Shown piece by piece: positions 4,321 through 19,776 of a stretch of 64,000 nt of DNA (its first letter is position 1; each line of letters starts with the position of its first letter). Below the pieces are notes generated by a model. The model was not told the DNA's origin. It saw only the letters and a program-made list of their open reading frames with translations, and made no database searches. The position numbers and the translations under genes are program-made. Source of the stretch: a virus; the IMG/VR virus record IMGVR_UViG_3300020578_000043, positions 14,728 to 78,727 of that record. The stretch is one strand, 5' to 3'.

Positions 4321-4322
4321 AA

Positions 4323-4988
4323 TCACTCATCATAGAAAGAACTTCCAGTTCCTGTAGAATCTCCCAATCCAGAAACCTCCCTAGGTCCTGACAACGGAGG
4401 ATCAAGGACACCGTTCTTGACCAAGTCTCTAACGTCTGCAGTTGGGCCATCCTTGTTCTCAGCGACTCCTCTTTGTTGCACAAATGTCTCTTGAACGGCA
4501 TCTGGATCTGCGTACTTGATATCCGTCGGTCCATTTGTGATGGCCTTAAACTGGCTCTCACGTACTCTAGTTCCCATCAATGAAACTCCATCGATGTTCT
4601 CTGCCTGGCCATAAATCGTGCGCATGTACTTGTATTCTGTGATCTCGTAGAAGATCGATCCGAATGAGAAGTAATCGCCTATCGACGGATTCAACCCCTT
4701 CTCGACCATATCTCTGTGTTGTATGTAAACTTCCAACGTAAATTGAGAATCAATACCAAACTTCGTTATCTTCGTCTCGTTCTGAAACTGTGCGTTTACA
4801 AGAGCCTCTACGACGATCGGATTGTCAAACACTTTCTGTAGAGCCTCGTCATAGACCTCATGAGACTGAGTCTTCGTCTCTGAGATGGGATAGTAATAGA
4901 TCTTTTGACCGATGACGTCCTTGACGATCTCTTTTGTGAGATCTGAAATGAAGTTGATCTCTCTGGGTGTGATGAATAATCTTGCCAT
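4323..4988 (-). CDS. Neck / head-closure protein (T4 gp14-like)
   Basis: GQKIYYYPI...YDEA...KFGID...GDYF pattern; synteny with gp13-like gene. Confidence 0.7.
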   Translation of the reverse strand: MARLFITPREINFISDLTKEIVKDVIGQKIYYYPISETKTQSHEVYDEALQKVFDNPIVVEALVNAQFQNETKITKFGIDSQFTLEVYIQHRDMVEKGLNPSIGDYFSFGSIFYEITEYKYMRTIYGQAENIDGVSLMGTRVRESQFKAITNGPTDIKYADPDAVQETFVQQRGVAENKDGPTADVRDLVKNGVLDPPLSGPREVSGLGDSTGTGSSFYDE

Positions 4989-4994
4989 GGCCTA

Positions 4995-6182
4995 TCAACC
5001 TATCACGATTCCCTTGCCTAGAGGCATGGGTATGTATCTCAACTGTTTCTGCATGTTTTCTGCTGCAAGAGCGTCAGCTTCCAATAGCTTCTGATGGGTC
5101 AGGTTAGCCAAGAACTCTTTCATTTGAGTCGTCAACTTTTCTTTATCTTCACGAGACTGGGTCAACAAGTCAGAGCCGTTTAGTTGTAGATCTGCATTTG
5201 GAATAGGAATCGTTTGAAATTTTGATCGTATGAGTCCTAATAGCTCTTTGCATAGAGCCAGGGTGTACTGACGAATCCATTGTTTTCCAGGTTGATTTAT
5301 TGTGGTGAAGGGAATGTTGCCAAAGGGTATGTTGCTTGGTCCTGATATTCCGTATATCGTGTCATCTTCATATGATGTTGGATTCAAGGGATCATGAGGT
5401 TCCATCACCTTTACGAACATCTTACCCATCTGAAGATCTGATGAAGGTATGGGATAAATCCTTAGATTGCTTCCTATGACATCATAACTGTATTGAGATC
5501 TTCTGACTCTGAACGCAGTCTCAAGCATTCCTCTTCGCAGAACGTCTTCAAACACAGGCAACACATAAAACACAGTTGAGTTAACGTATGATTCATAGTT
5601 AAAGTTTGTGGCAAGAAAATTTGTGATGTTCGATGCATTGAGAAGGAACTGCTGCGCTGCAAGAGGCTCAAAGTGAAATATCTCGACTATCTTTAATTTT
5701 CCTTTTCTTCCAGCTGGCAACGTACTGTAGATAGAGCTACCTGACAGGCTTCCAGAAGCGACCTTAAGATCTTCATACAGGTTATAATCCTGTTTATCCT
5801 TGATCAGGTCGATGTAACCTAACGTGGCGTCAAAAGATCCTCCTACATATGCTTCCGTCGCATATGGCTCTGCCATTCTTAGCAGGTATTCTACTGTTCT
5901 CTTGGCATATCTGTTCGTTAGGTCATTCGAACCTGTAGGAAGACCCATGACGTTCGTCAGATCTGACGTTATCTTCATTTCATGTATCAAACGTGAATAT
6001 TCACAACATGCTTCTTCGAAACATGCCCAAATCTCTTTCTTTGTCAACTCTACTGACAGGACATCGTCACCTAGCTTTCGTTTGACGAACGTCACCATAC
6101 CATCGGCTTCAGTCTGAAAAGCTGAATCAGAATCAAAGAAACCGAACGGCGTGGGGCTTATTGTTGAGGCGAATGTTGTCAT
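4995..6182 (-). CDS. Neck / head-tail adaptor protein (T4 gp13-like)
   Basis: KRKLGDDVLSVELT...WIRQYTLALCKELLGLIRSKF..IP....LNG motifs characteristic of gp13. Confidence 0.8.
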   Translation of the reverse strand: MTTFASTISPTPFGFFDSDSAFQTEADGMVTFVKRKLGDDVLSVELTKKEIWACFEEACCEYSRLIHEMKITSDLTNVMGLPTGSNDLTNRYAKRTVEYLLRMAEPYATEAYVGGSFDATLGYIDLIKDKQDYNLYEDLKVASGSLSGSSIYSTLPAGRKGKLKIVEIFHFEPLAAQQFLLNASNITNFLATNFNYESYVNSTVFYVLPVFEDVLRRGMLETAFRVRRSQYSYDVIGSNLRIYPIPSSDLQMGKMFVKVMEPHDPLNPTSYEDDTIYGISGPSNIPFGNIPFTTINQPGKQWIRQYTLALCKELLGLIRSKFQTIPIPNADLQLNGSDLLTQSREDKEKLTTQMKEFLANLTHQKLLEADALAAENMQKQLRYIPMPLGKGIVIG

Positions 6183-6265: not shown

Positions 6266-6595
6266 TCAAACTACTCTAGAGTACGTGACACTTATCTTGT
6301 CGCCTGTCTTTGGAGCCGTGTTAAAAATCAACAGCCTGTCAGACAACGAATAATCAACCCCAGATGATATTTGCAGGACATCATTTAAGAACACCAACGT
6401 CTTATCAGGATTCGGTTGGTATGAGATGACAAAAGTGCTGTTGTTTCCATCTACCTCACCTGTGGGAGTTTCATTCCACACCATCACATCGTACGAATCA
6501 TACGAGTTGTTGTCAACGACTTGCTGGACTGGACGAGGTCTGTAGTAGGAATAGACCTTCCTAGATCTAGATGCATCTCTTCTTGTGATCGACAT
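6266..6595 (-). CDS. Small virion-structural-type protein (single beta-rich tail-fibre-type repeat)
   Basis: DGNNSTF...VFLNDVLQ...DYSL...FNTAPKTGDKI resembles the repeat unit found in phage tail/baseplate proteins; ATAGTTA motif upstream. Confidence 0.45.
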   Translation of the reverse strand: MSITRRDASRSRKVYSYYRPRPVQQVVDNNSYDSYDVMVWNETPTGEVDGNNSTFVISYQPNPDKTLVFLNDVLQISSGVDYSLSDRLLIFNTAPKTGDKISVTYSRVV

Positions 6596-6636
6596 ATCAA
6601 TGATTAACTATTGACATGACAAAGACGTTCGACTGA

Positions 6637-7425
6637 TCAAAGCATCTTATAGGCTTCAAAATGCATTCCATCAGGTCTATTTGGAAACCATCCGCCCCAA
6701 TAGAATCCATGGTCATAAGCTATGCCGACCAATTCTCTCACTGAGCCAGTGGCTCCCCGTAAAGCAGGTTGAACGCCGAGTTGATTCCATTGAACGTTGA
6801 TGTCAAACGCCGTTCCCCAGGCATGGTTTGATAAAGCTGTCCTTGACCCTCGAATGAATCTAGGAGCCCATGTTCCTCCCCATGTCATGATCAAGTATGT
6901 CAATCCTGCAGAGTGCCATGCGTCAAATAGATCAAGGAACTGTTTGGACAGCGCTGAATGAATCGTCACGTTGCCTGATTTTGAGAATCCAGGAATGCTC
7001 GTCAAACGTGGGATGTTGACTGTCGTGATGTTCTTCTTTGCCCAATCGCCGATGATCGATATTCCTTCTGGGTTCGACGTCGTCGGGGCAGGCGTGAAAG
7101 AGAACTTTCCAAACATCTTCTCTCTATCAATCGGATTTAGAGATCCATGATTTGGAGGCTGAGGCCAGTTAGGTCCATTTATGTCCGCCGTTGGATCATC
7201 CATCAAGGGAAAGCCACACTGAAGAGCAGCAGAGATCGTTTTTGAACCGACAACGCCATCAGGGGTGAGACCTTTCCTGTTTTGAAAGTACTTGGTCTCT
7301 GTTTCAGTAAATGCATCAAAATCGCCATTGACGATGATGTGGCTGTCTGCAACCAAACCCCTAAGGAAATTTTGCCACTTTTCGACCTGAAGGCCTGTCG
7401 AACCCCTGCGTAAGATCTGCATCAT
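6637..7425 (-). CDS. Endolysin: N-terminal peptidoglycan-binding domain plus M15 family (L-Ala-D-Glu / D,D-carboxypeptidase-like) Zn peptidase
   Basis: LRRGSTG..V..WQ...GDF...T...FQ...GLTPDGVVG (PG_binding_1); SNHAWGTAFDIN and WGGWF..PDGMHFE zinc-peptidase motifs. Confidence 0.85.
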   Translation of the reverse strand: MMQILRRGSTGLQVEKWQNFLRGLVADSHIIVNGDFDAFTETETKYFQNRKGLTPDGVVGSKTISAALQCGFPLMDDPTADINGPNWPQPPNHGSLNPIDREKMFGKFSFTPAPTTSNPEGISIIGDWAKKNITTVNIPRLTSIPGFSKSGNVTIHSALSKQFLDLFDAWHSAGLTYLIMTWGGTWAPRFIRGSRTALSNHAWGTAFDINVQWNQLGVQPALRGATGSVRELVGIAYDHGFYWGGWFPNRPDGMHFEAYKML

Positions 7426-7433
7426 GTGCTACC

Positions 7434-7655
7434 TCAGAATGTCGACAATGCCCTGATCGCAATCTTCACTCGTTCTCGAAGCTCTTCGGGTAGAGCAGAC
7501 AACAAGACATATGTCTCAGGACGAACTGCGCTCTCTACCAAGCCACCAACGGTCTCTTGATTGCTGCGAGACACCCCAACGTTGATCGCAAGAGGAGGAG
7601 CTCCGACTCTAACATGAAGCATCGGTTGATATAGATCTACTTTTTGCATGTTCAT
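7434..7655 (-). CDS. Hypothetical protein
   Basis: 73-aa ORF, ATGA overlap with upstream ORF, 8 nt from endolysin. Confidence 0.55.
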   Translation of the reverse strand: MNMQKVDLYQPMLHVRVGAPPLAINVGVSRSNQETVGGLVESAVRPETYVLLSALPEELRERVKIAIRALSTF

Positions 7656-7831
7656 CCCTTTAAGACGCCTTGAGGTTTATTTAGAGCTTCATTCAATGTC
7701 GCAAACTGTGTCTTCAATGACAACAATACTTCTTCTAGTTGAAACGTGTTCTCTCCCCTAGAACGAGCATCATTGATCCTACCTTCAAGATCGACTATCT
7801 GTAATAACAGGTTTTCTGTTGCGGCTGACAT
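7652..7831 (-). CDS. Hypothetical 59-aa coiled-coil protein (below track cutoff)
   Basis: MSAATENLLLQIVDLEGRINDARSRGENTFQLEEVLLSLKTQFATLNEALNKPQGVLKG*; stop overlaps next start (ATGA). Confidence 0.55.
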   Translation of the reverse strand: MSAATENLLLQIVDLEGRINDARSRGENTFQLEEVLLSLKTQFATLNEALNKPQGVLKG

Positions 7832-7885
7832 GTTCGAATATTATTCTAATGTGGAATAAAATAAACTTCACCCTGACGGGGGAGC

Positions 7886-8284
7886 TTATTGTTTTGCAAA
7901 ATCTGATGCTTGTGTTTTTAAATCAGCCAAAATTGTTGTTAGCGTAGTAGGCACAATTTCACCAGTCAGAATTTTTACAGCAAAACGAGCTAATGCCCCT
8001 TGATCTGTCGTGCTTAATGCTTGTTGTATTGCTGCTTTGTCAGCACCTGATTCTAGCCCCTTAACGTCTTTTAGTGCTGAAGCAAGTTGAGATGCAAGCT
8101 GATCATCTTTTAAAGCCGGTTTAAGCTTAGTTAAGATTTTATCTAACATTTGATCTCGTTTTTTATCCGCTTGAGAATCTTGTCCCATCCCAGGAAGAGA
8201 CAATTGTTCTCCTGCTTCTGTCAATCTCTTGACTTGCGAATAGACCAACTTACGTAATTGAGCCTCAGTGATACGATGCTTCAT
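7886..8284 (-). CDS. Putative internal head protein
   Basis: N-terminal MKHRITEAQLRKLV...LTE motif; GGAG RBS; GTATTTA motif upstream. Confidence 0.5.
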   Translation of the reverse strand: MKHRITEAQLRKLVYSQVKRLTEAGEQLSLPGMGQDSQADKKRDQMLDKILTKLKPALKDDQLASQLASALKDVKGLESGADKAAIQQALSTTDQGALARFAVKILTGEIVPTTLTTILADLKTQASDFAKQ

Positions 8285-8393: not shown

Positions 8394-8837
8394 TCATAGA
8401 CCGCTAATGACGCATGATCCGGATGCTGCCATCACCAAAAAGCTCTTTCCGTCGCTGACAAGAGCCACAGAGGAACCTTCTGCCGAAGCCAGTGCGATCT
8501 TGCTTCCCTGTTCGTCAGGTGTCGCACCGGCTTGACCTGCGAACACCTTAACACCGGCTGTCTCTAGAGACCCTGTCAAAGCATGAGCATGGGCAGATGT
8601 CGAACGAAAGACGAAGACGCCTCCAGGAACCGATTCTGCAGTAGGCATCACCATTGTGATCGCGGCTACTGAAGACGAAAGAGTATAAACTCCAGGCGAT
8701 CCGATCGTCTCAGCCGCAGACTTTGCAACGACTGACGTCGTCGGCAACGAAGATAAAGAAAGCGAAGTGCTGACTTCAAATCCGGAACCTGCCTGTTGAA
8801 CCAAACCTTGTGAATCATTAACAACAACTTTAGGCAT
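8394..8837 (-). CDS. Putative virion structural/decoration protein
   Basis: 147 aa, Ser/Ala/Gly-rich beta-type; strong RBS (GGGGAG), ATAATTA motif upstream and its own terminator. Confidence 0.5.
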   Translation of the reverse strand: MPKVVVNDSQGLVQQAGSGFEVSTSLSLSSLPTTSVVAKSAAETIGSPGVYTLSSSVAAITMVMPTAESVPGGVFVFRSTSAHAHALTGSLETAGVKVFAGQAGATPDEQGSKIALASAEGSSVALVSDGKSFLVMAASGSCVISGL

Positions 8838-8917
8838 CTTGCAATCTCCCCTGATACACCTTAATTATTCAGGGATCAGCTATTTTTTTAATCTTAAAAG
8901 ATTTTTAAGAAAATCGA

Positions 8918-9133
8918 TCACAGCATTGATGCAACTTTAATCATCTCTTCAATGTCGTTGATAGATTTTTTTAATTTTTCTTCAATGGGCAAAATGGCGA
9001 ACGGTATGACACCCCTTCCGTCAACGCCGTTCTTCTTCCATGTAGAGACAGTGACCAGCAGACTCTCAAGGTCTTTTTTTGCCTTGAGAAGTGAAGCTAT
9101 GACGACATGAGACTTGCTGACTATCTTTGCCAC
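8918..9133 (-). CDS. Hypothetical protein
   Basis: 71-aa ORF filling the intergenic gap, GTG start. Confidence 0.45.
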   Translation of the reverse strand: MAKIVSKSHVVIASLLKAKKDLESLLVTVSTWKKNGVDGRGVIPFAILPIEEKLKKSINDIEEMIKVASML

Positions 9134-9171
9134 TGTTTCATTGCATAGGTATGCAAGCCATTATATAAAAC

Positions 9172-9206
9172 AAAAAAGAAAAGGAGATCGTATGATCTCC
9201 TTTTCA
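9172..9206 (-). terminator. Rho-independent terminator
   Basis: GAAAAGGAGATC-loop-GATCTCCTTTTC inverted repeat followed by T-run on the minus strand. Confidence 0.75.
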
Positions 9207-9230
9207 AGGAAGACTAAGTAAGTCTTGTGT

Positions 9231-9497
9231 TCAACGACGCGGCTTGCCAGTGAATTCGTAATGATTGCGAAGCAGGCGATACAACGTTCGTGCCTCGCGG
9301 CCTGTGAACTCAACCGTCTGTTGCTCAAGATCGATAAAGAATCGAGTTGAGTCGTTACGAGAATCTGTCGTCACTGCAGCATTGAAACCATCATCACGAC
9401 GAGCAGTCTCGGTTCGAAGCTTGCCAGTGCGATCAACACGGCTACGGATGATTGCATTCTTGTTCGTTGAAGTGTAGTTTTTCTTATTCCTTGGCAT
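9231..9497 (-). CDS. Small basic hypothetical protein (possible nucleic-acid binder)
   Basis: 88 aa Arg-rich; GGAGAG RBS; flanked by its own terminator. Confidence 0.6.
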   Translation of the reverse strand: MPRNKKNYTSTNKNAIIRSRVDRTGKLRTETARRDDGFNAAVTTDSRNDSTRFFIDLEQQTVEFTGREARTLYRLLRNHYEFTGKPRR

Positions 9498-9620
9498 ATA
9501 GTCTCTCCAATTTTTGGTTTTTTACGATCGGCTCATTTGATGCTTGCCGAATGATAGAAGGATACTTTTACTGCATCAACATGTACACGATGAGAAATTT
9601 GCCTTAAATCGTGAAAGAGA

Positions 9621-11222
9621 TCATTTGCTGTTGATCAATCCTGTGATCATCGACACGGAGTTTCCATACTCTGAAGTCTTGTTTGAATCCCCACGCGCGG
9701 TGGCATATACCGCTGCAGTGGATGAGAATGATGACATTTGATCCGACGTCTTTGATGAATCATCCAATCCCGAAGCGGGATTGTATCCGACTGCATTCTT
9801 TCCTGACATTTTGTTTGCATAGACGTGACCGAACCATCCGTTCTTGATGTAACCCTTTGGATCCATCACGTATGTCCAATTACAGGCATCAGGAGTCGCA
9901 TCAGGCCATGTCGATCCTTGAAGCGGAGTATGGGGTGTGTCGCCGTATGCAACGAACACCGTACTCTGATCGAGTCGTTCCGTGGGATTCTCAGGATCAA
10001 CCTGTTGAGACAGGTAGTTGTAGAATCCATTCAACACCTTGCCTAAGTGCTTCGTGGTATTTCTACCTTGGTTCATCAAGGTCATAGAATCAAAAGTAAC
10101 GTGTGGATCAGTGAAGGTCGTGTCGCTCGTCGGACCAGGAGATAGAGCTACGATGGCTGTCTTGGACAGACCGAGCGTGAATGCCTTTGCAACGACGATC
10201 AAGGTTCTACCAAATTCTTCAATGCCCTTACGTTGCGCAGGAGTCATGTACGAAGAAGATGAGTTTAGACCGTCAATCATCTCTTGAACTCCAAAATCGA
10301 TTAGATCTTGACTGGTCGGAGTCAACTGAGATGCAAAATTGAGACCGATGATCCTTGCAGCATTCTTTGTGACTTGCATCTGCGGTGCCCACGAAGTTCT
10401 ATTCGATGACTTACGAAGTCCTAGTAACGCCTTGTAATATACCTCAAACAGCTCTTGATCTGCCTTGGATGCTAATGCAAACTGACTTGCGGCGCTGTTG
10501 AACAGATCAATCATTCCTGTTGAACTTGGAACAGTTGCGACCTCAGGAGCACCAGGGGCTCGGCCATATTTCACGGGATCGATACCTAAAACTGGAACTA
10601 TAGCTGATGATCCAACTGCACCTAAAGATGCCAATGCAGCCTGCATTGAAGAATTTCCTGAAAGGGCAACCTGCGAGGCAGGAAATTCCGTATGGGTCTC
10701 ATCCTTACCTGACATGAAAGCAGAGACAGGATACTTTGGAATTCCTGTTGCATGATCAAACCATGGAGCATCTGGACCGTAGAAGAATGACCTATCTCCT
10801 CCTGACCATCCTTTCACGCCGTTAGGAAGCGTTGGCATTACATTTCCCTTGCCCCATGTATAAGTTCCTCTGTATCCGTTAGCCGGATTGTATCCATATT
10901 GTTGTGTGTACAGGTAGGAAGAGAATCCACCGAAGTTAGAAGTCAATCCTGAGACGTTGGCATTTTGACATGCCTTGAAACCAACATCTGCGACAGGCCA
11001 TAACTCTTGAAACCAAGCTTGTGAACCGTTCGGGGCAGGTACGAGCAATGATCGTCCGTATGTCGATCCTGCAGCTTCTGCTAGACCTGTGCCTCCCTCA
11101 TCAGAAAGAAAATTCAGCAAATCTGACCTTGATATTCCCACTGCTGCGGCCATCACACCGCACATCTTTAAAAAGCTTCTTCTGCGGTCGTTGCGTAGGT
11201 CCTTTAGCTTCCAATTGGTCAT
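9621..11222 (-). CDS. Tat-exported DUF1501/DUF1552-like protein
   Basis: Twin-arginine signal RRRSFLKMCGVMAAAVG..AEA; C-terminal DPH...HLGKVLNGFYNYL..RLDQSTVFVAYGDTPHTP pattern of that family. Confidence 0.65.
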   Translation of the reverse strand: MTNWKLKDLRNDRRRSFLKMCGVMAAAVGISRSDLLNFLSDEGGTGLAEAAGSTYGRSLLVPAPNGSQAWFQELWPVADVGFKACQNANVSGLTSNFGGFSSYLYTQQYGYNPANGYRGTYTWGKGNVMPTLPNGVKGWSGGDRSFFYGPDAPWFDHATGIPKYPVSAFMSGKDETHTEFPASQVALSGNSSMQAALASLGAVGSSAIVPVLGIDPVKYGRAPGAPEVATVPSSTGMIDLFNSAASQFALASKADQELFEVYYKALLGLRKSSNRTSWAPQMQVTKNAARIIGLNFASQLTPTSQDLIDFGVQEMIDGLNSSSSYMTPAQRKGIEEFGRTLIVVAKAFTLGLSKTAIVALSPGPTSDTTFTDPHVTFDSMTLMNQGRNTTKHLGKVLNGFYNYLSQQVDPENPTERLDQSTVFVAYGDTPHTPLQGSTWPDATPDACNWTYVMDPKGYIKNGWFGHVYANKMSGKNAVGYNPASGLDDSSKTSDQMSSFSSTAAVYATARGDSNKTSEYGNSVSMITGLINSK

Positions 11223-11234
11223 TTGTTCTCTCCG

Positions 11235-12266
11235 TTATTGACAAGAATGAGCAGCGCTTAACAGCGTTGCGACGGCAATGACTCGTTTCTTTGTTAGATC
11301 AGATGAGTCACCCACCTTCGCCTTTTGAACGATCAAGTTGCATAACAACATGTGATCATCAGTCGCCGGGATACCTATGAGGCAGCTTACTGTCTCTTCG
11401 ACGCATGATCCGTCAGCAGGATCGAACATGGGTCTATTCTTTCCACCCAACGTGCATGCTGGTGCTTTAGAAGGATCACCAATGTTTGCAATGATCTGCG
11501 GAGCGGATTGAATGAACACGTCCATCATTTTCATTGCAGATGCAGTTGAATGCTCTTCTTTTTCTCCAAGACGAGAATCAAGCTTGGGATATCCCAATGC
11601 ATCCTTAGCTGTGAAGTACAAGTAGCCTGCCGTTGACGGTTTAGATACACAATACCCATCGGCTGCATCTGGTGAGTTGTTTCCGACATCGAGGCAACCT
11701 CTGTTGTTCTGATTGAGCTTGTCGTCTTGGTTGCAGAAGCAAGACTCATTTGCTGGGCAAAGCGGATCATTTGTGCCGTTGGCGTCAGTCACAGCCATCT
11801 CGCATGCCGCGCCGCTACCACCGAAGATGCTACCTAACGTCATCGTCTGACCAAAGACGCTGACTTGCGTCGTACGAACATCTGAGACATTTCCAGGAGG
11901 AATGCTGACCCCTCTGCTTCTCAAGAACGTTCCGAGCTGGGCATAAGAGGGTTTACGACATCCATGCAATCTTGACATGATCTCATCAGCAGCAGGAACT
12001 TCAAATTGAGGAAGAGGATCACTCATCCCAGTTCCTGTTGAGACCGTCGCCTGAGGGGTTTCTGAAGATCCTCCCATTCCGCTTGTAGTGGACGACGAAG
12101 TGACTGCTATGACAGTCGAGTCAGTCACATGTTGAGGGTCTTCAACGCTTGGACAGTCATTTGCTCCAACGTCAGGTGCCGTTGATCCGCAAGAATTGAC
12201 CCATAAAAATGTTGCAAATACTCCAAGCAGTGACCATAACAGGTTTTTTGTACGTTTTTTTTGCAT
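11235..12266 (-). CDS. Cys-rich lipoprotein (myxobacterial type)
   Basis: Basic N-terminus, hydrophobic stretch, lipobox WVNS-C; Ser/Thr/Gly linker; many Cys in the mature part. Confidence 0.65.
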   Translation of the reverse strand: MQKKRTKNLLWSLLGVFATFLWVNSCGSTAPDVGANDCPSVEDPQHVTDSTVIAVTSSSTTSGMGGSSETPQATVSTGTGMSDPLPQFEVPAADEIMSRLHGCRKPSYAQLGTFLRSRGVSIPPGNVSDVRTTQVSVFGQTMTLGSIFGGSGAACEMAVTDANGTNDPLCPANESCFCNQDDKLNQNNRGCLDVGNNSPDAADGYCVSKPSTAGYLYFTAKDALGYPKLDSRLGEKEEHSTASAMKMMDVFIQSAPQIIANIGDPSKAPACTLGGKNRPMFDPADGSCVEETVSCLIGIPATDDHMLLCNLIVQKAKVGDSSDLTKKRVIAVATLLSAAHSCQ

Positions 12267-12269
12267 GGC

Positions 12270-13748
12270 TTAGAACCTCGTGAAGTCATCTGAAATCAGG
12301 ACCGTGCGTAGTACCTGTTTTAAGTTATATCCGTTACCCTTAAATTGTGCAACTAGCTTGGACAACGTCACAATCTCAGGATTCGGATCCTTCCTATCAG
12401 GTAGACTCACCCAGGATCGACCACCCACCTCGGTGATGTCAGGTCGTCCCATTGCATAGTTCCACGCTCGTTTCACCGCACATTCGATGACCTCATCGTC
12501 TTTAGACATCCGTTGACCTAACTCTGTAAGGTTTGACGCAGATCCAGACGTCTCAATGCCGTCGACCCTCATCATCTTCTTCCATGCAGTTCCGTTCTGG
12601 CCACCGTTTGGGCATTTTGAAGGTTCGATGCACAACCAATCGGACAACTTTGCTCGAGGTGAACCGTTCACCGGAACGAACACCGAGTATTCCCCTGCTG
12701 GTGTCAACATCTGGAAGATTCCCTTTGAGTCAAATTGGCTGAACAAGGGCGCTCTGTGATTCCACGTTGAGTGACAGTTGGCGCAGACGTTGCTAGAATT
12801 GTAATCATGAAAATCTACCCGACCTCCGTTACACTTACCAGCAATCTCGTTAACGGGCCACTTATTGTTGTACCCAGGAATGGATTTTTGATCTCCGCAC
12901 GGTGGATCAACCGGAGGTTGATCGGTCGGCTCACCGCCTGATTGTTCATTACCGTTTTTGCACAGGAATGTCTCATGAAAGAAACGATTCCTCCTGAAGG
13001 ACAGGTTGCCGTAGTACAGGCTTTGAGCACCAGGATCTGTCAAGATTCCTGAATGATTCATCCCGGCAGGAAGATTGCTACAAGACCCATCAACAAAGGT
13101 GTTGCTTGCAGGATTAAAAGTAGGACATGTATTAGACTGTTGAGTGAGGATGTTACGCCAATCTTTTCCTTCATAGACGACCTTTGCCGCAAATGATGGA
13201 GCAGTGTCACGAGTCGGTTCACCTGCCGTCGTCGATGCACCGCCCATCTTGAACGTATATTTGAAGAACTCGACCAGAGTCGCAGCGAACCGCGGATCGG
13301 CAAGCTTCTTATCGATCAATTCCTCATACTTCGCAGCCTGCACGTCGGGAGGAAGATCACCGAGTTCATAGATCTCTGACAACGTCGGGACATCTCCAAC
13401 TAGAAGAATGCTAGCCGTACGAAGAGCTTCTGAGTAGTCGGTTTCCCTTTCGTCTAGTTCTGTCATCTCTTGCTTCTGTTCTTGACTCGAACCTGTCGAA
13501 ACCGTCGTCGTCGAGGGTGAGGTCGTGACGCCTGACACTGTCTCTGCAGAAGTTGAAGCGACGGTCGTCTGGGATGAGACGTCAGACGTCGAAGGGACAT
13601 GCGGGGTGGGACAATCTTCAAAGACAGCCGACGTGTCGCCGGCCAGCTTGTAAGGATTCTGACGTTCACAACCGTAGATCGACAAGGTACTTGCAAGACC
13701 AACCGAGATCAATCCATGCTTGATGATATCTTTCTTTTCCATAGCCAT
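12270..13748 (-). CDS. Lipoprotein with c-type heme motif (DUF1549/DUF1588/DUF1585-like)
   Basis: Lipobox SIYG-C; ALRTASILLVGDVPT...YEELIDKKLADPRF; SGILT; CANCH at 12771-12785; C-terminal YAMGR...FKGNGYNLKQVLRTVLISDDF. Confidence 0.7.
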   Translation of the reverse strand: MAMEKKDIIKHGLISVGLASTLSIYGCERQNPYKLAGDTSAVFEDCPTPHVPSTSDVSSQTTVASTSAETVSGVTTSPSTTTVSTGSSQEQKQEMTELDERETDYSEALRTASILLVGDVPTLSEIYELGDLPPDVQAAKYEELIDKKLADPRFAATLVEFFKYTFKMGGASTTAGEPTRDTAPSFAAKVVYEGKDWRNILTQQSNTCPTFNPASNTFVDGSCSNLPAGMNHSGILTDPGAQSLYYGNLSFRRNRFFHETFLCKNGNEQSGGEPTDQPPVDPPCGDQKSIPGYNNKWPVNEIAGKCNGGRVDFHDYNSSNVCANCHSTWNHRAPLFSQFDSKGIFQMLTPAGEYSVFVPVNGSPRAKLSDWLCIEPSKCPNGGQNGTAWKKMMRVDGIETSGSASNLTELGQRMSKDDEVIECAVKRAWNYAMGRPDITEVGGRSWVSLPDRKDPNPEIVTLSKLVAQFKGNGYNLKQVLRTVLISDDFTRF

Positions 13749-13884
13749 ATAGACATAGGTACCACAAGAATTAAAAAAGTATAAATCTGATGTAAACCAC
13801 GGCGGATTTTATCCGATTTTTCTAGAAAGATCGTCACGTCATCTTAGCAGAAGATGATGAGCAGTGTCGGCCACATGCGACACA

Positions 13885-14304
13885 TTATTTCTGCGCGCGG
13901 AAGGCGATCGCCTTGACTTCGTCGAGCCACTTCAGAAATAGTTCGCCCGGGCCAACAGGTACATCTGGACCACCAGGTTTACTTTGGACCTTCGGGCTGT
14001 TTCTATTGACGGCAGCTTCTAAAGCCGCGATATAATTTTCTTTATAATTTTTAATCTCATTTTCATCTTTGTTTTCATCTTTGGCCATGGTCTCGATGTC
14101 TTCGAGCGTCTCGTTGATGCTGTTGGTAAGATAATTGGAAAGGTCTTCATCACTCAAGTCGGGTGAGTACATGTCAAAGAAGCTTCGCCATAGTTCATTT
14201 GCGTCTTTATCCAACAATTGATTGATTGGATCGATACGATCTTCACCTTCATTAACAAACCTTCGCCAGCCCTCAAATAGAACTTTCATGTCTGCGTTTT
14301 TCAT
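13885..14304 (-). CDS. Putative internal head protein (acidic)
   Basis: MKVLFEGWRRFVNE N-terminal motif; 139 aa. Confidence 0.5.
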   Translation of the reverse strand: MKNADMKVLFEGWRRFVNEGEDRIDPINQLLDKDANELWRSFFDMYSPDLSDEDLSNYLTNSINETLEDIETMAKDENKDENEIKNYKENYIAALEAAVNRNSPKVQSKPGGPDVPVGPGELFLKWLDEVKAIAFRAQK

Positions 14305-14337
14305 ATTGATTATATATACTCACCCCAGGAGACAACA

Positions 14338-15765
14338 TCACGATAAATCGATGACGTATATGTGTGATCCACATCCATAAATCCTTGAGACTCTCGCCTC
14401 AATTTCAATCTGACGTTCTGACTTACCACCTTTTGCTCTAAACTTGAACCTATCGTAACGAAGTTGGTTATCAGTGTACCAATAATCTATAGTCGTTGAT
14501 CCTAGAAAAGAAAACCCTACAGATTTATATCCGCCCCCTTCTCCCACACGTCTATCGACGTACGTCATGATTCCGCGGTATCCGTTTTTTGCACACCACT
14601 CTTTGGCGCGTTTCACCAGCTTAGACAAGCCTCCAGGAACAGAGGTCGCTATAGCCGTGCTGTACCGAGCAATTTCTAGGTAACCTTCGTACTTCTTACC
14701 GTTCCTCGGAGCACGAAGCGACAGGGCAGCAACGACGATACCGTTCTTATCTCTCAAGCCCCACGTTACCTTGGACGGGACGTATCCTGCGATGTGCGTA
14801 GAATCGAAGAAAGACCTTTGTTCTTGCGTGTTTAATTCGACGACTCTTGTTGACCACGTCTTACACCTGTGACGATCCATGACGAGGCGGTGGCGGATCA
14901 TTGACTCGCATATCGTTCGCTTGTCTCGCCACTCGTCCTCAAAGATCTGCAGCAATTTTATGCCGTTCTTCGCAGCGAGGACGGATTTTTCTAGATGCTT
15001 GTTCTTATCAAAAACCTCTTGTTTAGAACCTTCGCTGTGCCAGTACAACCCATGACACTCTATCCCAAATTTTTTGGAAGGAACATACACGTCGATTTCC
15101 TTCGGAGACATCGCCTTCTTATCACCTGATATCACATCAGGTGCTAGCGATTGGACGAATGTGAACACCTCTAGTTCCCAATTGGACTTGCTGAATGGGT
15201 GGCACTTATAACACCTGCTTCCTCTTTCAAATGCCTGCAGGGTCTTTGGCTGAACTTCTCCACATCGATTACATTGAAACTTAAGGTACTGCTCTTGCCG
15301 AGAGATGTATTCTTCTAACGGAGTAATGAGGATGAACTCAGATTGCCTCTCCAATAATCTTTCTTTTAGCGTAGATGTTTCCAACATCTTACTTAAGCTA
15401 AGTTTTTCTAGGGTCTCTCGTGTATGGCGGCGACCATAGAATGGGTTACCTTCGCCTGTCATTGATTCAGACTGGCGCTTTATCCTCGGATCTGTATCCT
15501 TAGTTTGCCCCTTATTCCAAGCTTCGGCCTTTCCGCCACGGGCTCCGCCTTCTTTCATAGCGAGACGGGAATGGTCTTTGCAGAATCTTTTAAAAGAAAA
15601 AGAAACGTATCTGACGGAGGATGAACACACTTCGCAAACAGGTTTTTTACCTCCGTGGTATACTTCAACAGTGTAATCCTCTGATGACAGACCGTGAATT
15701 GACCTGATGTGGTTTGTCAGTTTCTTTGCATCATCATGTCGAAAGTCACATAGCCTACAGTCCAT
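14338..15765 (-). CDS. Free-standing homing-endonuclease-like protein: Zn finger + NUMOD3 + PD-(D/E)xK nuclease + C-terminal GNAT/Mom-like domain (Hef-like)
   Basis: CRLC..H..H zinc finger; AWNKG and GEGNPFYGRRHTRETLEKLS (NUMOD3); EIDVYVP..FGIECHGLYWHS; IFEDEW; EIARY...GGLSKL...TYVDRR. Confidence 0.75.
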   Translation of the reverse strand: MDCRLCDFRHDDAKKLTNHIRSIHGLSSEDYTVEVYHGGKKPVCEVCSSSVRYVSFSFKRFCKDHSRLAMKEGGARGGKAEAWNKGQTKDTDPRIKRQSESMTGEGNPFYGRRHTRETLEKLSLSKMLETSTLKERLLERQSEFILITPLEEYISRQEQYLKFQCNRCGEVQPKTLQAFERGSRCYKCHPFSKSNWELEVFTFVQSLAPDVISGDKKAMSPKEIDVYVPSKKFGIECHGLYWHSEGSKQEVFDKNKHLEKSVLAAKNGIKLLQIFEDEWRDKRTICESMIRHRLVMDRHRCKTWSTRVVELNTQEQRSFFDSTHIAGYVPSKVTWGLRDKNGIVVAALSLRAPRNGKKYEGYLEIARYSTAIATSVPGGLSKLVKRAKEWCAKNGYRGIMTYVDRRVGEGGGYKSVGFSFLGSTTIDYWYTDNQLRYDRFKFRAKGGKSERQIEIEARVSRIYGCGSHIYVIDLS

Positions 15766-15884: not shown

Positions 15885-17780
15885 TCAGATGATGTTCATG
15901 TCGAGACACGTCACTGTTCCGAAGAAATCGCTGCGAACCATTTTCTTACCGTAGCGAGTCATCACACCCTTACGCGGTGTGAAATCTTCCGGTGCGAAGA
16001 TGGTCGGAGTGACGATGAGCGGAACGTACGGGGCGTAGACGTAGCCGGTCTCGAGGTAGCTGCCGCCCTTGTAGCCGACGAGGATCTTGTTTCTGACGAA
16101 GTAAGGATCCTTGTAGACTGTGAAGCGGTTGCTGAGAGAGCCGATTGCCTCTGCTCCGATTGTGAACGGAGACGCGACTTGACCTTCACCGTCGATGGAG
16201 AACTTCGGCTTGTAGAGCACCGAAGACTCGAGGACCGTGGCGACGTCCGGGCCGCAAACGAGGAAGTTTGCAGAGCCGCGGAGTGTCTTGCGGTGGATGG
16301 TGTTGGCGACGTCGATGATCGTCTCGACGAGGGTCTCGTACCACTCACGAACTGTACCTGTGAAGGCCGGTCCGATTGAGAGGGATGAGGCAAGTGTGAC
16401 CGGTGAACCGGTTGTCTTGTTAACGAACCTGCCTGGAGCACGGCTCCAGTAGTAGTTCGCGCCGTTTGCTTGTGTGACGAGGTCATTGAGGATCTCGCGG
16501 TCGATCTCAAGAGCAATCTGCTCAGAGAGGATCGAGGTGAGCTCGACCTCTGCATCCATTGAGTGGTATGCATTGAGGTCTTGTGCGAGTTCCGGTGACC
16601 AACGAGCACGTAGCTTGCGGGTCGCCGCGGTGATCGCGAGAGACTCGATCTTGATGTCGATCTCCGGGATTGCCGGGGACGGTGTTGCACCGAAATCGGA
16701 CTCGAACGACGGTACCGTGAGGGTCGCACCGGTTCCACCTGAATCAGCGCCGAGGGCAACGACTGAATCAGCCTTGGCAAAAGTAACGCGACCTGCACCG
16801 GCTGTCAATCCCGCCGAGCTGAGACCGTTTGCGCCCTTGACGACGAACTGAACGTGTGTGCCGTTCAATGCATCAGGAGTGAAGTATGGAGCAACTGAGT
16901 TGCTGAAGTTTCCACGCTTGTTGAGGCGACGAAGGTTAAGAACGCCGCTTCCTCCTTGATATGTTTGACCCCATGCCGTTGCATTTCCTCCTAAGCCGCT
17001 GAACATTGCGATTTGATCAACTGCGAGAAGATCTGCACCAGACAAAGCACTCGTCGGAACGTAAACGAAGAGAGCATCGAGAGCGTTGTTTGTGAGATCA
17101 GTCTCAACTTGGCTGTCGTAGTCAGCAAAACGACCGTTCGAACCCGAGAACATGCCACCCGAAGAAACGATAAGACCTGATGTCCATGTATCTCCATTGG
17201 TTCCGCCGTAAGCACCAGAATGAACTGTTGCTGCAGAGAAGTCTAGAGCTTGGAGGGAACCGGTAACCTTGGAATAACCTGTTCCGACGAGGTCGTACAT
17301 ACCACCAGCTGCAAGAGATCCGGATTGGACTCCACGACCTGTGGGGTTGTTGTAGATAGAGGTACCACGTGAGTAGGTTGCCTCAGATGACTGACCTGCG
17401 GCCTGACCGACGTTGGTTCCGTAGGTGTAATCAAGATAGAAGATGAGGCCAGAGGGGAGACTCATCGGTTGGATCGAGACGAGCTCATTGGCGACGAGGC
17501 CACCGAACACGCGGCGGACGATTGGGAAGGCGATGTTGCTAAAGCCTTGGATCTGTCCACCGTTGGCAACGTTGCCGCCGCCTGTTGAGAGAGCTGAGCT
17601 CTCCTTCAGGACCTGGGCAGCTTGGTTCTCGAGAAGTTGTGACATCATCTCGCGGCGTTGACCGTCGAGACCACGGAGGAGACCGGTGCGGCTCCACTTC
17701 TCTGTCAAACGAGCACGCTCAGCACCGACGTGGCGTTCACGGATGCCTTGTGCTAACTGATCAATCGTAAAAGTCTTCAT
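15885..17780 (-). CDS. Major capsid protein (T4 gp23 family)
   Basis: LLENQ, VRRVFGGLVANELVSIQPMSLPSGLIFYL, TRKLRARWSPELAQDLNAYHSMDAEVELTSILSEQIALEIDREI, YAPYVPL...FTPRKGVMTRYG; ATG 17780 after AGGAG RBS preferred over track start 17870. Confidence 0.97.
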   Translation of the reverse strand: MKTFTIDQLAQGIRERHVGAERARLTEKWSRTGLLRGLDGQRREMMSQLLENQAAQVLKESSALSTGGGNVANGGQIQGFSNIAFPIVRRVFGGLVANELVSIQPMSLPSGLIFYLDYTYGTNVGQAAGQSSEATYSRGTSIYNNPTGRGVQSGSLAAGGMYDLVGTGYSKVTGSLQALDFSAATVHSGAYGGTNGDTWTSGLIVSSGGMFSGSNGRFADYDSQVETDLTNNALDALFVYVPTSALSGADLLAVDQIAMFSGLGGNATAWGQTYQGGSGVLNLRRLNKRGNFSNSVAPYFTPDALNGTHVQFVVKGANGLSSAGLTAGAGRVTFAKADSVVALGADSGGTGATLTVPSFESDFGATPSPAIPEIDIKIESLAITAATRKLRARWSPELAQDLNAYHSMDAEVELTSILSEQIALEIDREILNDLVTQANGANYYWSRAPGRFVNKTTGSPVTLASSLSIGPAFTGTVREWYETLVETIIDVANTIHRKTLRGSANFLVCGPDVATVLESSVLYKPKFSIDGEGQVASPFTIGAEAIGSLSNRFTVYKDPYFVRNKILVGYKGGSYLETGYVYAPYVPLIVTPTIFAPEDFTPRKGVMTRYGKKMVRSDFFGTVTCLDMNII

Positions 17781-17826
17781 TGTTTTTCTCCTGTTGCGTA
17801 TCAAAAAGTTGTTAGAAAGTTGTTGC

Positions 17827-19776
17827 TCACTTGCTGATGCCAGCGAGCTTTGCCCAACGCTCTGCCTCAACTCCCTCTGACAAGGTCTGTGTTGAAGCGG
17901 GGCGAGTTGCCTGTGAAGATGATCCGAACACGCGACCCTCTGTCACAGTCCTACGAGGCTTCACCAATGTCTTGGAGAGGCTCTCGTAAACGAGCTTCGC
18001 TTCGCGAATCGTCTCAGCCGCATCGAGTTGCTCAATTACCTGTGCCTTTTGGCGAGCAGTGAGCGACTCTGTCTGAAGAAGCTTATTCGTGAAGAGGAGC
18101 TTCGCGTTGAGCAGATTCGTTTCTGCCAACTTCTTGCTTAGCGTGTTGTCTGTGCTAGCACCAGGTTTGACGCGGCTATTTGAGCGAGCGTTGACTCCCT
18201 CCTTGAGGGATTGTGAAAGGTTATTGAAGCGAACGACTGAGCGATTGTAACGTTCGGCTGCTTCAGCGTATGCAGCCTTTAATTGAGCCGCACGGGAAGC
18301 TGCTTGTCTTGCTTCAACCAAAGTTGTAGCATCTTTTGTGGCAGCATAAAGCTTCTTTAATTGAGAAGCACGAAGACGTAATGATTCTTGAAGCTTGAGC
18401 TCTTTAGCCATTTGTAGACGAACTGACTCATTGGCAGGTTGTCTTTTCTGGACATTCTTGTCCTTGGTATTGTGCTCGTCGTTGTCTTTTGCTTGACCCA
18501 TAGAAACTATTTCGTCCACATCAACTTCTAATAAGTCGTCTTCATCGAGGCATTGTTTAGCTTCCATCTTCTTTTTAGGTGCTTTAGCAGCAGCGGCTGA
18601 AGTTCCTTCATCACCACCGGCCTTATCTGTCTCATCCGTCATAGTAAGCTCGTCGAGATAAGCTTCAACTTTTGCCATGGCATCAATTTCATCCATGCCA
18701 TACATTTCCTCGTCCATACCGCATGATGCTTCGGTAAGATCCATGTCTAAAGGTTCACCTTCTTCTTCGGCGCCGCCGAAGTCATCGAACTCTTCAGGAC
18801 CAGGACGTTCGCCTACTTCAAGTGCGCCTGATTCTGATTCGTCAGCTTCACGAAGAAGCTTCATGAAAGCGATTTCACGACGAAGCATGTTTTCATCGAT
18901 TTCAACGACGGCATCGTCATCAAGGCCCAGTACTTCAAGAAGACCTTCTTCTTTTTCTGGTTCACCTTCTTCACCTGGAACTGCTCCAGCTTTAGAGGCT
19001 TCTTCTTCGCCTTCTTCGCCTTCATCAGGTTCTTCGCCTTCAGCGCCTTCTTCTTCTTCGCCCTCACCATCGAGGACGAGATCTACTGATGCATCATCAA
19101 GAACTTCTCCTAGGTCAACACCAGGAAGATCCAGTTCGATGGTAACCTTATCTTCATTTAGTCTTCTTTTCATTGTTGTCTCCTGAAGCTTTTCTAGCTT
19201 TTCTAAACATTTTCTAACTTTCAAACCGTATCCTAACCTGGTGGTAGGATCATCAATCTTCTTGTCTATGAACTCATAGATCACGTCGATCATGTCTCCC
19301 AAGTGAGACACATTAGAATCAAACTCTGCTGATTCAGTGATTCGTGAGTCCACCTTCGCCAACGCCTCAACCATTTTTTCGACGTAGCGTAGCTTTTGTT
19401 CCATTTGGCCGGTGGATGACGGCATCTTGGCAGAGACGAGGTTTTTTACGGAAGCATCGAAAGACTCAACCTTCGCTGAAGGTGCTAGTTGAGCAAGGTC
19501 GACGACTAGTTTTTTTGTTGTACGTCTTTTAACTTCTTCGACGTCTTTACCATTGGGTTCAACTATAAGTTTTTCGCCTTTATCACCACAGCGATTGACG
19601 ACTTCTTCTTCTTCCACTTCAAGATCTTCGACCGCTTCTGCCAAAAGTTCTTTTTCAATCAGCTCCCGAATGCGAGGAGCGACCGCCTCGACGACAGCAC
19701 GTTTCGCATTGTCTTCGGCGATTTCCTTGACCTTCTTCAAATCCGCAATTGCTTCTTCATAGAGCTGCTTTGACAT
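17827..19776 (-). CDS. Prohead core / scaffolding protein (gp22-like)
   Basis: Directly upstream of MCP; EAIADLKKVKEIA N-terminus, long acidic region, coiled coil, NLLNAKLLFTNKL...AKLVYESL..WAKLAGI C-terminus; many L/I/V-x-E sites. Confidence 0.75.
   Translation of the reverse strand: MSKQLYEEAIADLKKVKEIAEDNAKRAVVEAVAPRIRELIEKELLAEAVEDLEVEEEEVVNRCGDKGEKLIVEPNGKDVEEVKRRTTKKLVVDLAQLAPSAKVESFDASVKNLVSAKMPSSTGQMEQKLRYVEKMVEALAKVDSRITESAEFDSNVSHLGDMIDVIYEFIDKKIDDPTTRLGYGLKVRKCLEKLEKLQETTMKRRLNEDKVTIELDLPGVDLGEVLDDASVDLVLDGEGEEEEGAEGEEPDEGEEGEEEASKAGAVPGEEGEPEKEEGLLEVLGLDDDAVVEIDENMLRREIAFMKLLREADESESGALEVGERPGPEEFDDFGGAEEEGEPLDMDLTEASCGMDEEMYGMDEIDAMAKVEAYLDELTMTDETDKAGGDEGTSAAAAKAPKKKMEAKQCLDEDDLLEVDVDEIVSMGQAKDNDEHNTKDKNVQKRQPANESVRLQMAKELKLQESLRLRASQLKKLYAATKDATTLVEARQAASRAAQLKAAYAEAAERYNRSVVRFNNLSQSLKEGVNARSNSRVKPGASTDNTLSKKLAETNLLNAKLLFTNKLLQTESLTARQKAQVIEQLDAAETIREAKLVYESLSKTLVKPRRTVTEGRVFGSSSQATRPASTQTLSEGVEAERWAKLAGISK

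Follow-up and report, generated by a model that had tools for sequence, protein, structure and literature searches.

Many genomes of the Planctomycetota and Verrucomicrobiota contain dozens of modules that combine proteins of the PSCyt/PSD type with DUF1501 or DUF1552 proteins and whose function has remained unknown since 2004-2012. Here we analyse a phage-borne set of three genes, A, B and C, that appears to be a small and divergent relative of these modules. The genes lie at positions 9621-13748 of a stretch of 64,000 nucleotides (positions 14,728 to 78,727 of the IMG/VR virus record IMGVR_UViG_3300020578_000043), which we call the window. A preliminary description of the window had picked out the three genes as encoding a set of exported proteins.

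Among described systems the nearest are the modules of DUF1501 with PSCyt1, PSCyt2 and PSD1 found in Planctomycetota, Verrucomicrobiota and Lentisphaerota (Kamneva et al. 2012, PMC3542564). In bacteria of the Planctomycetes-Verrucomicrobia-Chlamydiae (PVC) group one form of these DUF1501 and PSCyt/PSD modules has four genes, one of which encodes a secreted protein that is uncharacterised, and no function is known for the modules (PMC3542564). The same is stated of PSCyt/PSD-type modules elsewhere (PMC5615132).

The phage cassette shares the basic plan of the DUF1501 and PSCyt modules, in that the gene for an enzyme-like protein with a twin-arginine translocation (Tat) signal adjoins that for a CxxCH-containing 'Planctomycete cytochrome' protein. 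Gene product A is homologous to the DUF1549/DUF1553 proteins of these modules. C has, in the same order as DUF1501, N-G after strand 1, DxH, G(D/E)xxxTP and WP(D/H)A. The secreted protein and the second cytochrome-motif protein of the four-gene PVC form are paralleled by B and by a gene X of the bacterial relatives described below. By contrast, C lies outside the DUF1501 hidden Markov model (HMM; 0 of 82 family members match), and A is short, lacking PSCyt1 and most of PSD1. Unlike their PVC counterparts, A and B are lipoproteins as judged by their signals, no relative of B could be detected in the PVC modules, and the A-B-C cassette is confined to Polyangia (10 of 301 Myxococcota genomes sampled) and their phages. 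A second type of described locus pairs PSCyt3/PSD proteins (DUF1585, DUF1587, DUF1588, DUF1592, DUF1595) with DUF1552. There again A resembles its counterpart, passing the PSD2/DUF1585 cut-off with a weak match to PSCyt3, and the partner has a Tat signal; but C lacks the HXXSHH motif and is not aligned with DUF1552 by hhalign (0.3%).

Organization of the cassette and predicted export signals

The three open reading frames (ORFs) have the same orientation and are separated by only 3 nt between A and B (12267-12269) and 12 nt between B and C (11223-11234), confirming the arrangement given in the preliminary description. The features of the cassette are:

12270..13748, (-), gene A, ORF of 492 aa, putative lipoprotein with CxxCH
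13668..13748, (-), predicted lipoprotein signal peptide of A, residues 1-27, lipobox SIYG-C (translation and homologues)
12771..12785, (-), CANCH in A (Cys322-x-x-Cys325-His326), candidate haem c attachment motif (translation)
11235..12266, (-), gene B, ORF of 343 aa, putative Cys-rich lipoprotein
12189..12266, (-), predicted lipoprotein signal peptide of B, residues 1-26, WVNS-C (translation and homologues)
9621..11222, (-), gene C, ORF of 533 aa with a twin-arginine signal
11166..11186, (-), twin-arginine motif RRRSFLK of C (translation, TIGR01409, family alignment)
13771..13786, (-), AT-rich box TTTATACTTTTTTAA, 25-37 nt upstream of the start of A

The lipobox of A (SIYG-C) obeys the usual rule, while that of B (VNS-C) has a non-canonical Asn at -2. 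The closest bacterial homologues of A have AYG-C or AAG-C at this position, the signals of B relatives end in SAA-C, FNS-C, LAA-C and similar sequences, and the bacterial copies of A and B have the canonical L-A/S-A/G-C lipobox. Nearly all the A and B homologues read from loci have a Cys following the hydrophobic stretch; in the alignment of 67 A sequences this Cys is invariant, and in that of 75 B sequences nearly so. The TIGR01409 model of the Tat signal scores 18.9 bits with C (cut-off 16.7), and R14 and R15 are invariant or nearly so throughout the C family. From these motifs and their conservation we infer that A and B are lipoproteins and that C is Tat-exported. All three signals, together with the CANCH sequence of A, had been noted in the preliminary description; each is present, and the signals are conserved in the homologues.

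The AT-rich box upstream of A is a candidate phage late-type promoter and hints at late-type transcription. Related phages have a box resembling T(T/A)TATA...TTTTT ahead of A, such as TTTTATAAATTTTTTAA in contig L009. A sigma-70 scan gave no promoter at the box, and scans for sigma-70 promoters and terminators at the cassette borders gave nothing exceeding shuffled expectation.

The cassette in Myxococcota and the origin of the phage copies

A profile search with the C alignment over 185,579 species genomes returned 148 relatives, and the best 80 were examined as loci. All 80 are from Myxococcota, mostly Polyangia, the named ones being Polyangiaceae, Polyangium, Byssovorax, Chondromyces and Kofleriaceae. 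In 78 of them A, B and C occur in the same order, and no phage structural genes were found in any of the 80. A relative of C is held by 10 of 301 Myxococcota genomes in an even sample, and some genomes hold two to four copies. The closest bacterial loci (C 61-76% identical) are in freshwater metagenome-assembled genomes (MAGs) of 63-69% GC, and have nothing beyond the cassette in common with the phage.

Most of the bacterial loci have a further gene, X, upstream of A. This encodes a lipoprotein of ~440 aa that contains two CxxCH motifs and weakly matches cytochrome c. Examples are:

6497-7834 of bacterial locus L044, gene X
6687-7994 of bacterial locus L083, gene X

X is missing from the bacterial subfamily nearest the phage, and it was found neither in the 78.7-kb phage record (22% complete) nor in related phage loci. 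No conserved neighbours other than X-A-B-C were found in the bacterial loci.

A maximum-likelihood tree groups all 18 phage copies as a single clade (93/93). Five copies from two MAGs of freshwater Polyangiaceae form its sister group, and successive branches of bacterial copies enclose both. Because the phage clade is nested among bacterial copies, the transfer ran from bacterium to phage, and once for this clade. In the phage cassette the GC content at third codon positions (GC3) is 0.43-0.51, resembling that of phage genes, compared with 0.77-0.94 in the bacterial homologues; the captured genes have taken on the codon composition of the phage. The copies have phage genes on both sides and are nested in a host clade, as is expected of auxiliary metabolic genes.

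We conclude that the phage carries in these three genes a copy of a cell-envelope cassette of Polyangiaceae (Myxococcota), and that this cassette is a divergent small relative of the PSCyt/PSD and DUF1501 modules. The host derivation proposed in the preliminary description is upheld, and the cassette is best described as a host-derived auxiliary set. On the basis of the gene transfer alone, the host of the phage may be taken to be a member of the Polyangiaceae.

Distribution among phages, selection and a second capture

The triad is found at the same place in more than 30 viral contigs. It lies between capsid and neck genes in 20 IMG/VR contigs that were retrieved with C, and further contigs with A-B-C were retrieved with the neck protein or the C alignment; 80 related phage loci were collected using the head-tail adaptor as query. 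Comparison of the phage copies gives a synonymous divergence (dS) of ~2, i.e. saturated, a nonsynonymous divergence (dN) of 0.13-0.28, and dN/dS of ~0.05-0.12, a ratio that is approximate owing to the saturation. It is comparable to that of the capsid and neck genes, and C has the same dN as the capsid gene. The cassette genes are under purifying selection. All the residues that are invariant in the A, B and C families are present in the window proteins, although the invariant columns were computed across phage and bacterial copies with the window included, so that they are present by construction. These observations bear out the earlier view of a cassette that is intact and has been kept by the phage.

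A different A-B-C triad occupies the same locus in the related phage G305 (200 kb; capsid protein 79% identical) and in contigs L230 and L231, where it is placed between the capsid/homing-endonuclease genes and small ORFs/neck genes. Its proteins are ~34% identical to those of the window and ~50% identical to the copies of Chondromyces apiculatus. It has a GC3 of 0.31-0.37 and is without X. In the family tree the C protein of this second triad is on the other main branch, in a different bacterial subclade (95* by the Shimodaira-Hasegawa-like approximate likelihood ratio test, SH-aLRT), among Polyangiaceae copies whose loci have X. Its placement identifies a second, independent capture of the cassette at the same locus by related phages. 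Since the same three genes have been captured twice independently, A-B-C would be the unit that the phage needs, and because related phages acquired a second version in this way the cassette probably benefits the phage.

We note that a minimal three-gene version has thus been isolated twice by selection on phage, which marks A-B-C as the functional unit, and that the cassette is small enough for expression and assay. That Polyangiaceae genes were captured twice suggests that these T4-like jumbo phages, uncultured and from freshwater, infect planktonic Polyangiaceae; we know of no cultured phage for these bacteria. A tblastn search with C against 50,697 deposited phage genomes gave no match, and no phage-borne module of this kind is described in the literature searched, in keeping with the preliminary description, which did not recognize it as a known phage system.

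Integrity of the assembly

The stretch 8800-14600 is present nearly word for word in at least 23 lake-water metagenome runs (at least 58% of sampled words). The junctions, named in the preliminary description as the places where a misassembly might lie, were checked using contigs from four lake runs, none of which is marked as a possible source of the record. Position 9621 is bridged by contig records 1, 10 and 17, and positions 13748-13885 are bridged by contig records 15, 21 and 30. The depth across the cassette borders is even, at ~6-7.

The GC content of the cassette (0.47-0.50) is slightly above the 0.42 of the window, as might be seen were it an assembly chimera or host contamination of the viral bin. 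However, both junctions are bridged at even depth by contigs of independent runs, the identical arrangement occurs in dozens of contigs from different samples, and the GC3 of the cassette is phage-like and far from that of the bacterial homologues. The independent bridging contigs and the recurrence in other viral contigs rule out such an artefact, to which we attach almost no probability.

Gene A: a CxxCH protein resembling the PSCyt/PSD type

In the A protein the signal peptide ends at Cys27 and is followed by ~65 aa of linker rich in Ser/Thr and then by the folded core (residues 95-492). It matches Pfam PSD2/DUF1585 (PF07624) at residues 405-436 with 29 bits, above the cut-off of 25.8. With PSCyt2 (PF07583) the window protein scores 19.7 bits, under the cut-off of 29.8, while its bacterial orthologues in L044 and L083 lie above it (29.9 and 35.3 bits respectively). 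The match to PSCyt3/DUF1588 is weak (14.3 bits) and falls around the CxxCH. Within the family (67 members, E<=0.01) there are matches to PSCyt2 in 64, PSCyt3 in 43, PSD2 in 39, PSD1 in 10 and DUF1800 in 4.

The family was compared by hhalign with a set of 33 DUF1549/DUF1553 proteins carrying both PF07583 and PF07587. This gave 97.5% with an E-value of 5e-12 over 269 columns, aligning residues 106-489 of A with 78-395 of the 611 template positions, i.e. the first two thirds. The CxxCH of A is aligned with the CAQCH of the DUF1549/DUF1553 proteins, and C322, C325 and H326 are invariant in the 67 sequences. By these alignments A is a remote homologue of the DUF1549/DUF1553 (PSCyt2/PSD) proteins. 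The preliminary description had assigned A to the DUF1549/1588/1585 type, which agrees with the profile alignment and the PSD2 match, together with the weaker matches to PSCyt2 and PSCyt3. The CxxCH is a candidate site of haem c attachment; to our knowledge covalent haem c has never been demonstrated for any PSCyt protein.

A full C-terminal PSD1 (DUF1553) domain was not found in A, and a weak PSD1 match was seen in 10 of the 67 members. The missing part is not supplied by B at the level of sequence (hhalign 2.6%). The structure model of A has a predicted local distance difference test score (pLDDT) of 82. In a fold search of this model against the PDB the best match had Z = 4.9, and a three-helix stretch alone was matched.

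Gene C: a predicted alkaline-phosphatase-superfamily fold

The model of C has a pLDDT of 84 and a predicted template modelling score (pTM) of 0.80. All of the top 50 structural matches are members of the alkaline-phosphatase superfamily, with Z between 7.8 and 11.8; alignment by VIA-align superimposes 214-280 residues with a root-mean-square deviation that is mostly 4.1-5.6 Å, with one row at 6.6 Å. The matches include sulfatases, nucleotide pyrophosphatases (NPPs), PafA- and PhoA-type phosphatases and phosphoglycerate mutase (iPGM), as well as the phosphoethanolamine and glycerophosphate transferases MCR-1, EptA, LtaS, BcsG and GacH (Z 8.7-9.9). The Foldseek list is equally uniform. The model thus places the core of C in the alpha/beta fold of the alkaline-phosphatase superfamily. 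A search of the PDB with the sequence profile of C gave no match at E<=10.

The invariant residues of C are H177 (in ETHT), P373-H374 (in DPH), G427-D428, W439, D441 and N448, and D372, T176 and T178 are nearly invariant. The conservation of H177, H374, D428, D441, N448, D372, T176 and T178 suggests a metal site. Asn65 occupies the usual place of the first metal-binding Asp.

The preliminary description had placed C with DUF1501 or DUF1552. This holds at the level of the fold, since C belongs to the alkaline-phosphatase superfamily in its model, and fails at that of the family models. The window protein gave no match with DUF1501 (PF07394) at E<=1. C has the Tat signal and adjoins a PSCyt-type gene as in the DUF1501 modules, and its fold class is that expected of DUF1501. 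In the ESM Atlas, 26 of the 30 named clusters nearest to C by feature are DUF1501 (score 0.96). A profile alignment of C with DUF1501 is co-linear over 360 columns, pairing DPH with DTH, GDTPHTP with GEFGRTP, and WPDA with HWPHA, though it is not significant. These language-model features and the co-linear alignment hint that C is DUF1501-like.

DUF1552 was rejected as the family of C, there being no Pfam match and an hhalign value of 0.3% confined to the signal region; the HXXSHH motif of DUF1552 (PF07586) is absent from C. DUF1552 genes proper occur elsewhere in Polyangia genomes.

The C family comprises 356 clusters at 50% identity and has no Pfam model. In searches of NCBIfam, PHROGs and PADLOC with A, B and C nothing was found except the Tat signal of C. 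A second tier of proteins of 400-450 aa (P0320-P0386) matches the C-terminal half of the C profile only, with E-values of ~1e-35 to 1e-49. Ten of these second-tier proteins, from the 150 matches listed, were compared with Pfam; nine have no family, P0381 has only RCC1-type repeats, and no enzyme-like family was found in the ten.

Gene B: a putative Cys-rich lipoprotein

B comprises the signal peptide to Cys26, a Ser/Thr-rich linker, and a conserved core from around residue 95. In the 75 sequences H101, K105, C271 and C295 are invariant, and C26, C103 and C342 nearly so. No match was found in Pfam, NCBIfam, PHROGs or PADLOC, and by these searches B belongs to no known family. It is always located between A and C in the loci. 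No fusion of B into longer proteins was found, which is weak evidence. In the ESM Atlas B weakly resembles PSD1-containing proteins, with a template modelling (TM) score of 0.36-0.43, a likeness between models that we treat as a lead only.

We note that the contigs of all four lake runs end at 11715/11724 inside B, with short high-depth pieces at 11716-11760, and that there is a T>G variant at 11754 in these runs. The breaks at 11716-11760 point to strain microdiversity or a short repeat.

Proposed function and alternatives

Our preferred explanation, which we hold to be somewhat better than evenly likely, is that the phage has kept the Polyangiaceae envelope cassette as an auxiliary set that supplements the paralogues of the host, most probably in scavenging. 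A, B and C would be produced together in the infected cell, probably with the late virion genes. The host would export A and B by the Sec pathway and lipidate them with Lgt/Lsp, so that both are tethered to the membrane through their long flexible linkers, while C would be exported folded via Tat and haem would be attached to A by the cytochrome c maturation (Ccm) system of the host. The three proteins would then cooperate at the periplasmic face of the envelope. C could be a metal-dependent transferase or hydrolase of phospho- or sulfo-esters acting near the membrane, where the tethered A and B might hold it, A as its redox or haem partner and B as a disulfide-rich accessory. By retaining the cassette the phage would supplement the paralogous modules of its host, and the likeliest role is scavenging of a substrate or nutrient at the envelope where this limits phage yield.

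There is a parallel in the pstS and phoA genes of cyanophages, which are phage auxiliary metabolic genes for nutrient scavenging. They too are host-derived and act in the periplasm or envelope, selection maintains them in lytic T4-like phages where the waters are poor in nutrients, and C would fall in the same structural superfamily as the PhoA- and PafA-type phosphatases. They differ from the present case, which is a whole three-gene exported cassette with a haem-motif partner and myxobacterial donors. A lytic phage carrying an entire exported multi-protein cassette that needs the Tat, lipoprotein and probably cytochrome c maturation systems of its host is unusual among auxiliary genes.

A number of observations weigh against this explanation. 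That the role is metabolic is proposed by analogy with other auxiliary genes of phages. At the canonical position of the nucleophile following strand 1, C has N65-G66 and lacks any conserved Ser, Thr or Cys; ETHT may supply a candidate nucleophile. The Pfam models of DUF1501 and DUF1552 match none of the 82 members of the C family (E<=0.01). Alignment of C with DUF1501 by hhalign is non-significant, at 1.1% (E 0.049) and 1.7% (E 0.028), using small DUF1501 alignments of 4-6 sequences, and with the DUF1552 proteins of the same Polyangia genomes it gives 0.3% in the signal region only. The phage has a GC content of 42% compared with 61-69% for the donor bacteria, a large difference in composition. 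Lastly, the related phages G303 (59% complete) and G304 (84% complete) carry no copy, so that the cassette is accessory and non-essential to the wider phage group.

The same anatomy and origin could serve a different end if the phage used the cassette to alter the surface of the infected cell, modifying or masking a receptor or surface polymer. Superinfection might then be blocked or progeny kept off debris, in the manner of T5 Llp or of receptor-destroying enzymes, and outer-membrane exchange might be altered. Such a use would be in keeping with the presence of two lipoproteins on long tethers among three products that all have export signals, with the match of C to the envelope-modifying transferases MCR-1, EptA, LtaS, BcsG and GacH (Z 8.7-9.9), and with the location of the genes among those for late virion and lysis proteins, near the endolysin. 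X was dropped in both captures, and the phage version may not reproduce the full function of the host; yet the nearest bacterial subfamily is likewise without X, so its absence is not specific to the phage. Moreover the PADLOC models of defence and exclusion systems gave no match with A, B, C or three neighbouring ORFs, and the retention of all the invariant residues of the host family, with C 76% identical to the closest bacterial copy, fits an unchanged activity better than a new target. T5 Llp is a phage lipoprotein that blocks a receptor or superinfection. It too is a phage-encoded lipoprotein sent to the host envelope, as predicted here, but proteins of its type are small, single and have no counterpart in a host operon, whereas the cassette encodes two large tethered lipoproteins and a protein with an enzyme fold, all with close host homologues. 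We regard a role at the cell surface as the main rival, unlikely though deserving some weight, and a little less still attaches to the specific form in which the cassette is a self-contained haem-assisted envelope enzyme that destroys or masks the receptor, or disturbs outer-membrane exchange or kin recognition in the infected myxobacterium. If the surface were rewritten in this way, this would be a new kind of multi-protein system of superinfection exclusion or receptor destruction, and would provide the first functional handle on the large class of PSCyt/DUF1501 modules.

Two further explanations would deny the cassette an auxiliary role. It might be a passenger, i.e. host DNA acquired by chance that has no function in the phage. 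The capsid-neck locus is indeed variable, as the homing endonuclease comes and goes and there is other cargo in G304, and some related phages are without the cassette. Against this, the genes are intact in more than 30 contigs despite synonymous saturation (dN/dS 0.05-0.12), their codon composition has shifted fully to that of the phage, and the same three genes were captured twice independently; the passenger explanation is very improbable, and close to refuted. Alternatively A, B and C might be virion or assembly proteins, being located between the capsid and neck genes in the same orientation and being as conserved as the capsid protein. But all the phage copies have kept the Tat and lipoprotein signals, which imply exit from the cytoplasm where heads are assembled, the homologues are chromosomal operons of myxobacteria with no phage genes nearby, and there was no match in the structural families of PHROGs. 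We consider a structural role to be no likelier than that of a passenger.

Surrounding phage genes

The 78.7-kb source record has a CheckV completeness of 22%, indicating a genome of several hundred kb. The flanks of the cassette are T4-like phage genes, of an uncultured freshwater (lake) phage. The cassette has the major capsid gene on one side and the neck genes on the other, in the same orientation, embedded in the head/neck cluster as the preliminary description had it, with capsid, endonuclease, endolysin and adaptor genes around it. The neighbouring genes are:

26696-28330, terminase
23142-26264, (-), portal, 1040 aa, with HNH-type insertion
15885..17870, (-), major capsid protein, T4-type (phrog_138, 6e-74), upstream of the cassette
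14338-15765, (-), homing endonuclease, between the capsid gene and the cassette
6637-7425, endolysin
4995..6182, (-), head-tail adaptor, gp13-like neck protein (phrog_211, 2e-11), downstream of the cassette
2971-4326, tail-sheath-stabiliser-like gene

The nearest capsid proteins in deposited phages are 36-49% identical. The capsid gene of the window has a GC content of 0.549 and a GC3 of 0.595, far above the GC content of the window (0.42). In the portal gene there are matches to HNH endonucleases at residues ~177-287, with the portal domain at 457-856, so that the former look like an inserted mobile element or intein. The homing endonuclease has 94-95% protein identity in L013, L014, L017 and L011, and is missing from other related phages whose capsid proteins are only 75-90% identical; this pattern fits a mobile element moving among related phages.

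In G304 (L155:2730-8285) the region upstream of the neck gene has fibre-like and collagen-like genes in place of the cassette; encoded there are a Gly/Ser-rich repeat protein, two tandem paralogues of ~397 aa and a collagen-like protein with G-x-y repeats. In a subset of the related phage contigs (L002, L003, L004 and L021) the endolysin gene runs opposite to the genes around it. Downstream of the cassette in the window is an ORF of 147 aa (8394-8837), and in L230 and L231 two tandem copies of it immediately follow the second-type cassette (L230:9425-10323).

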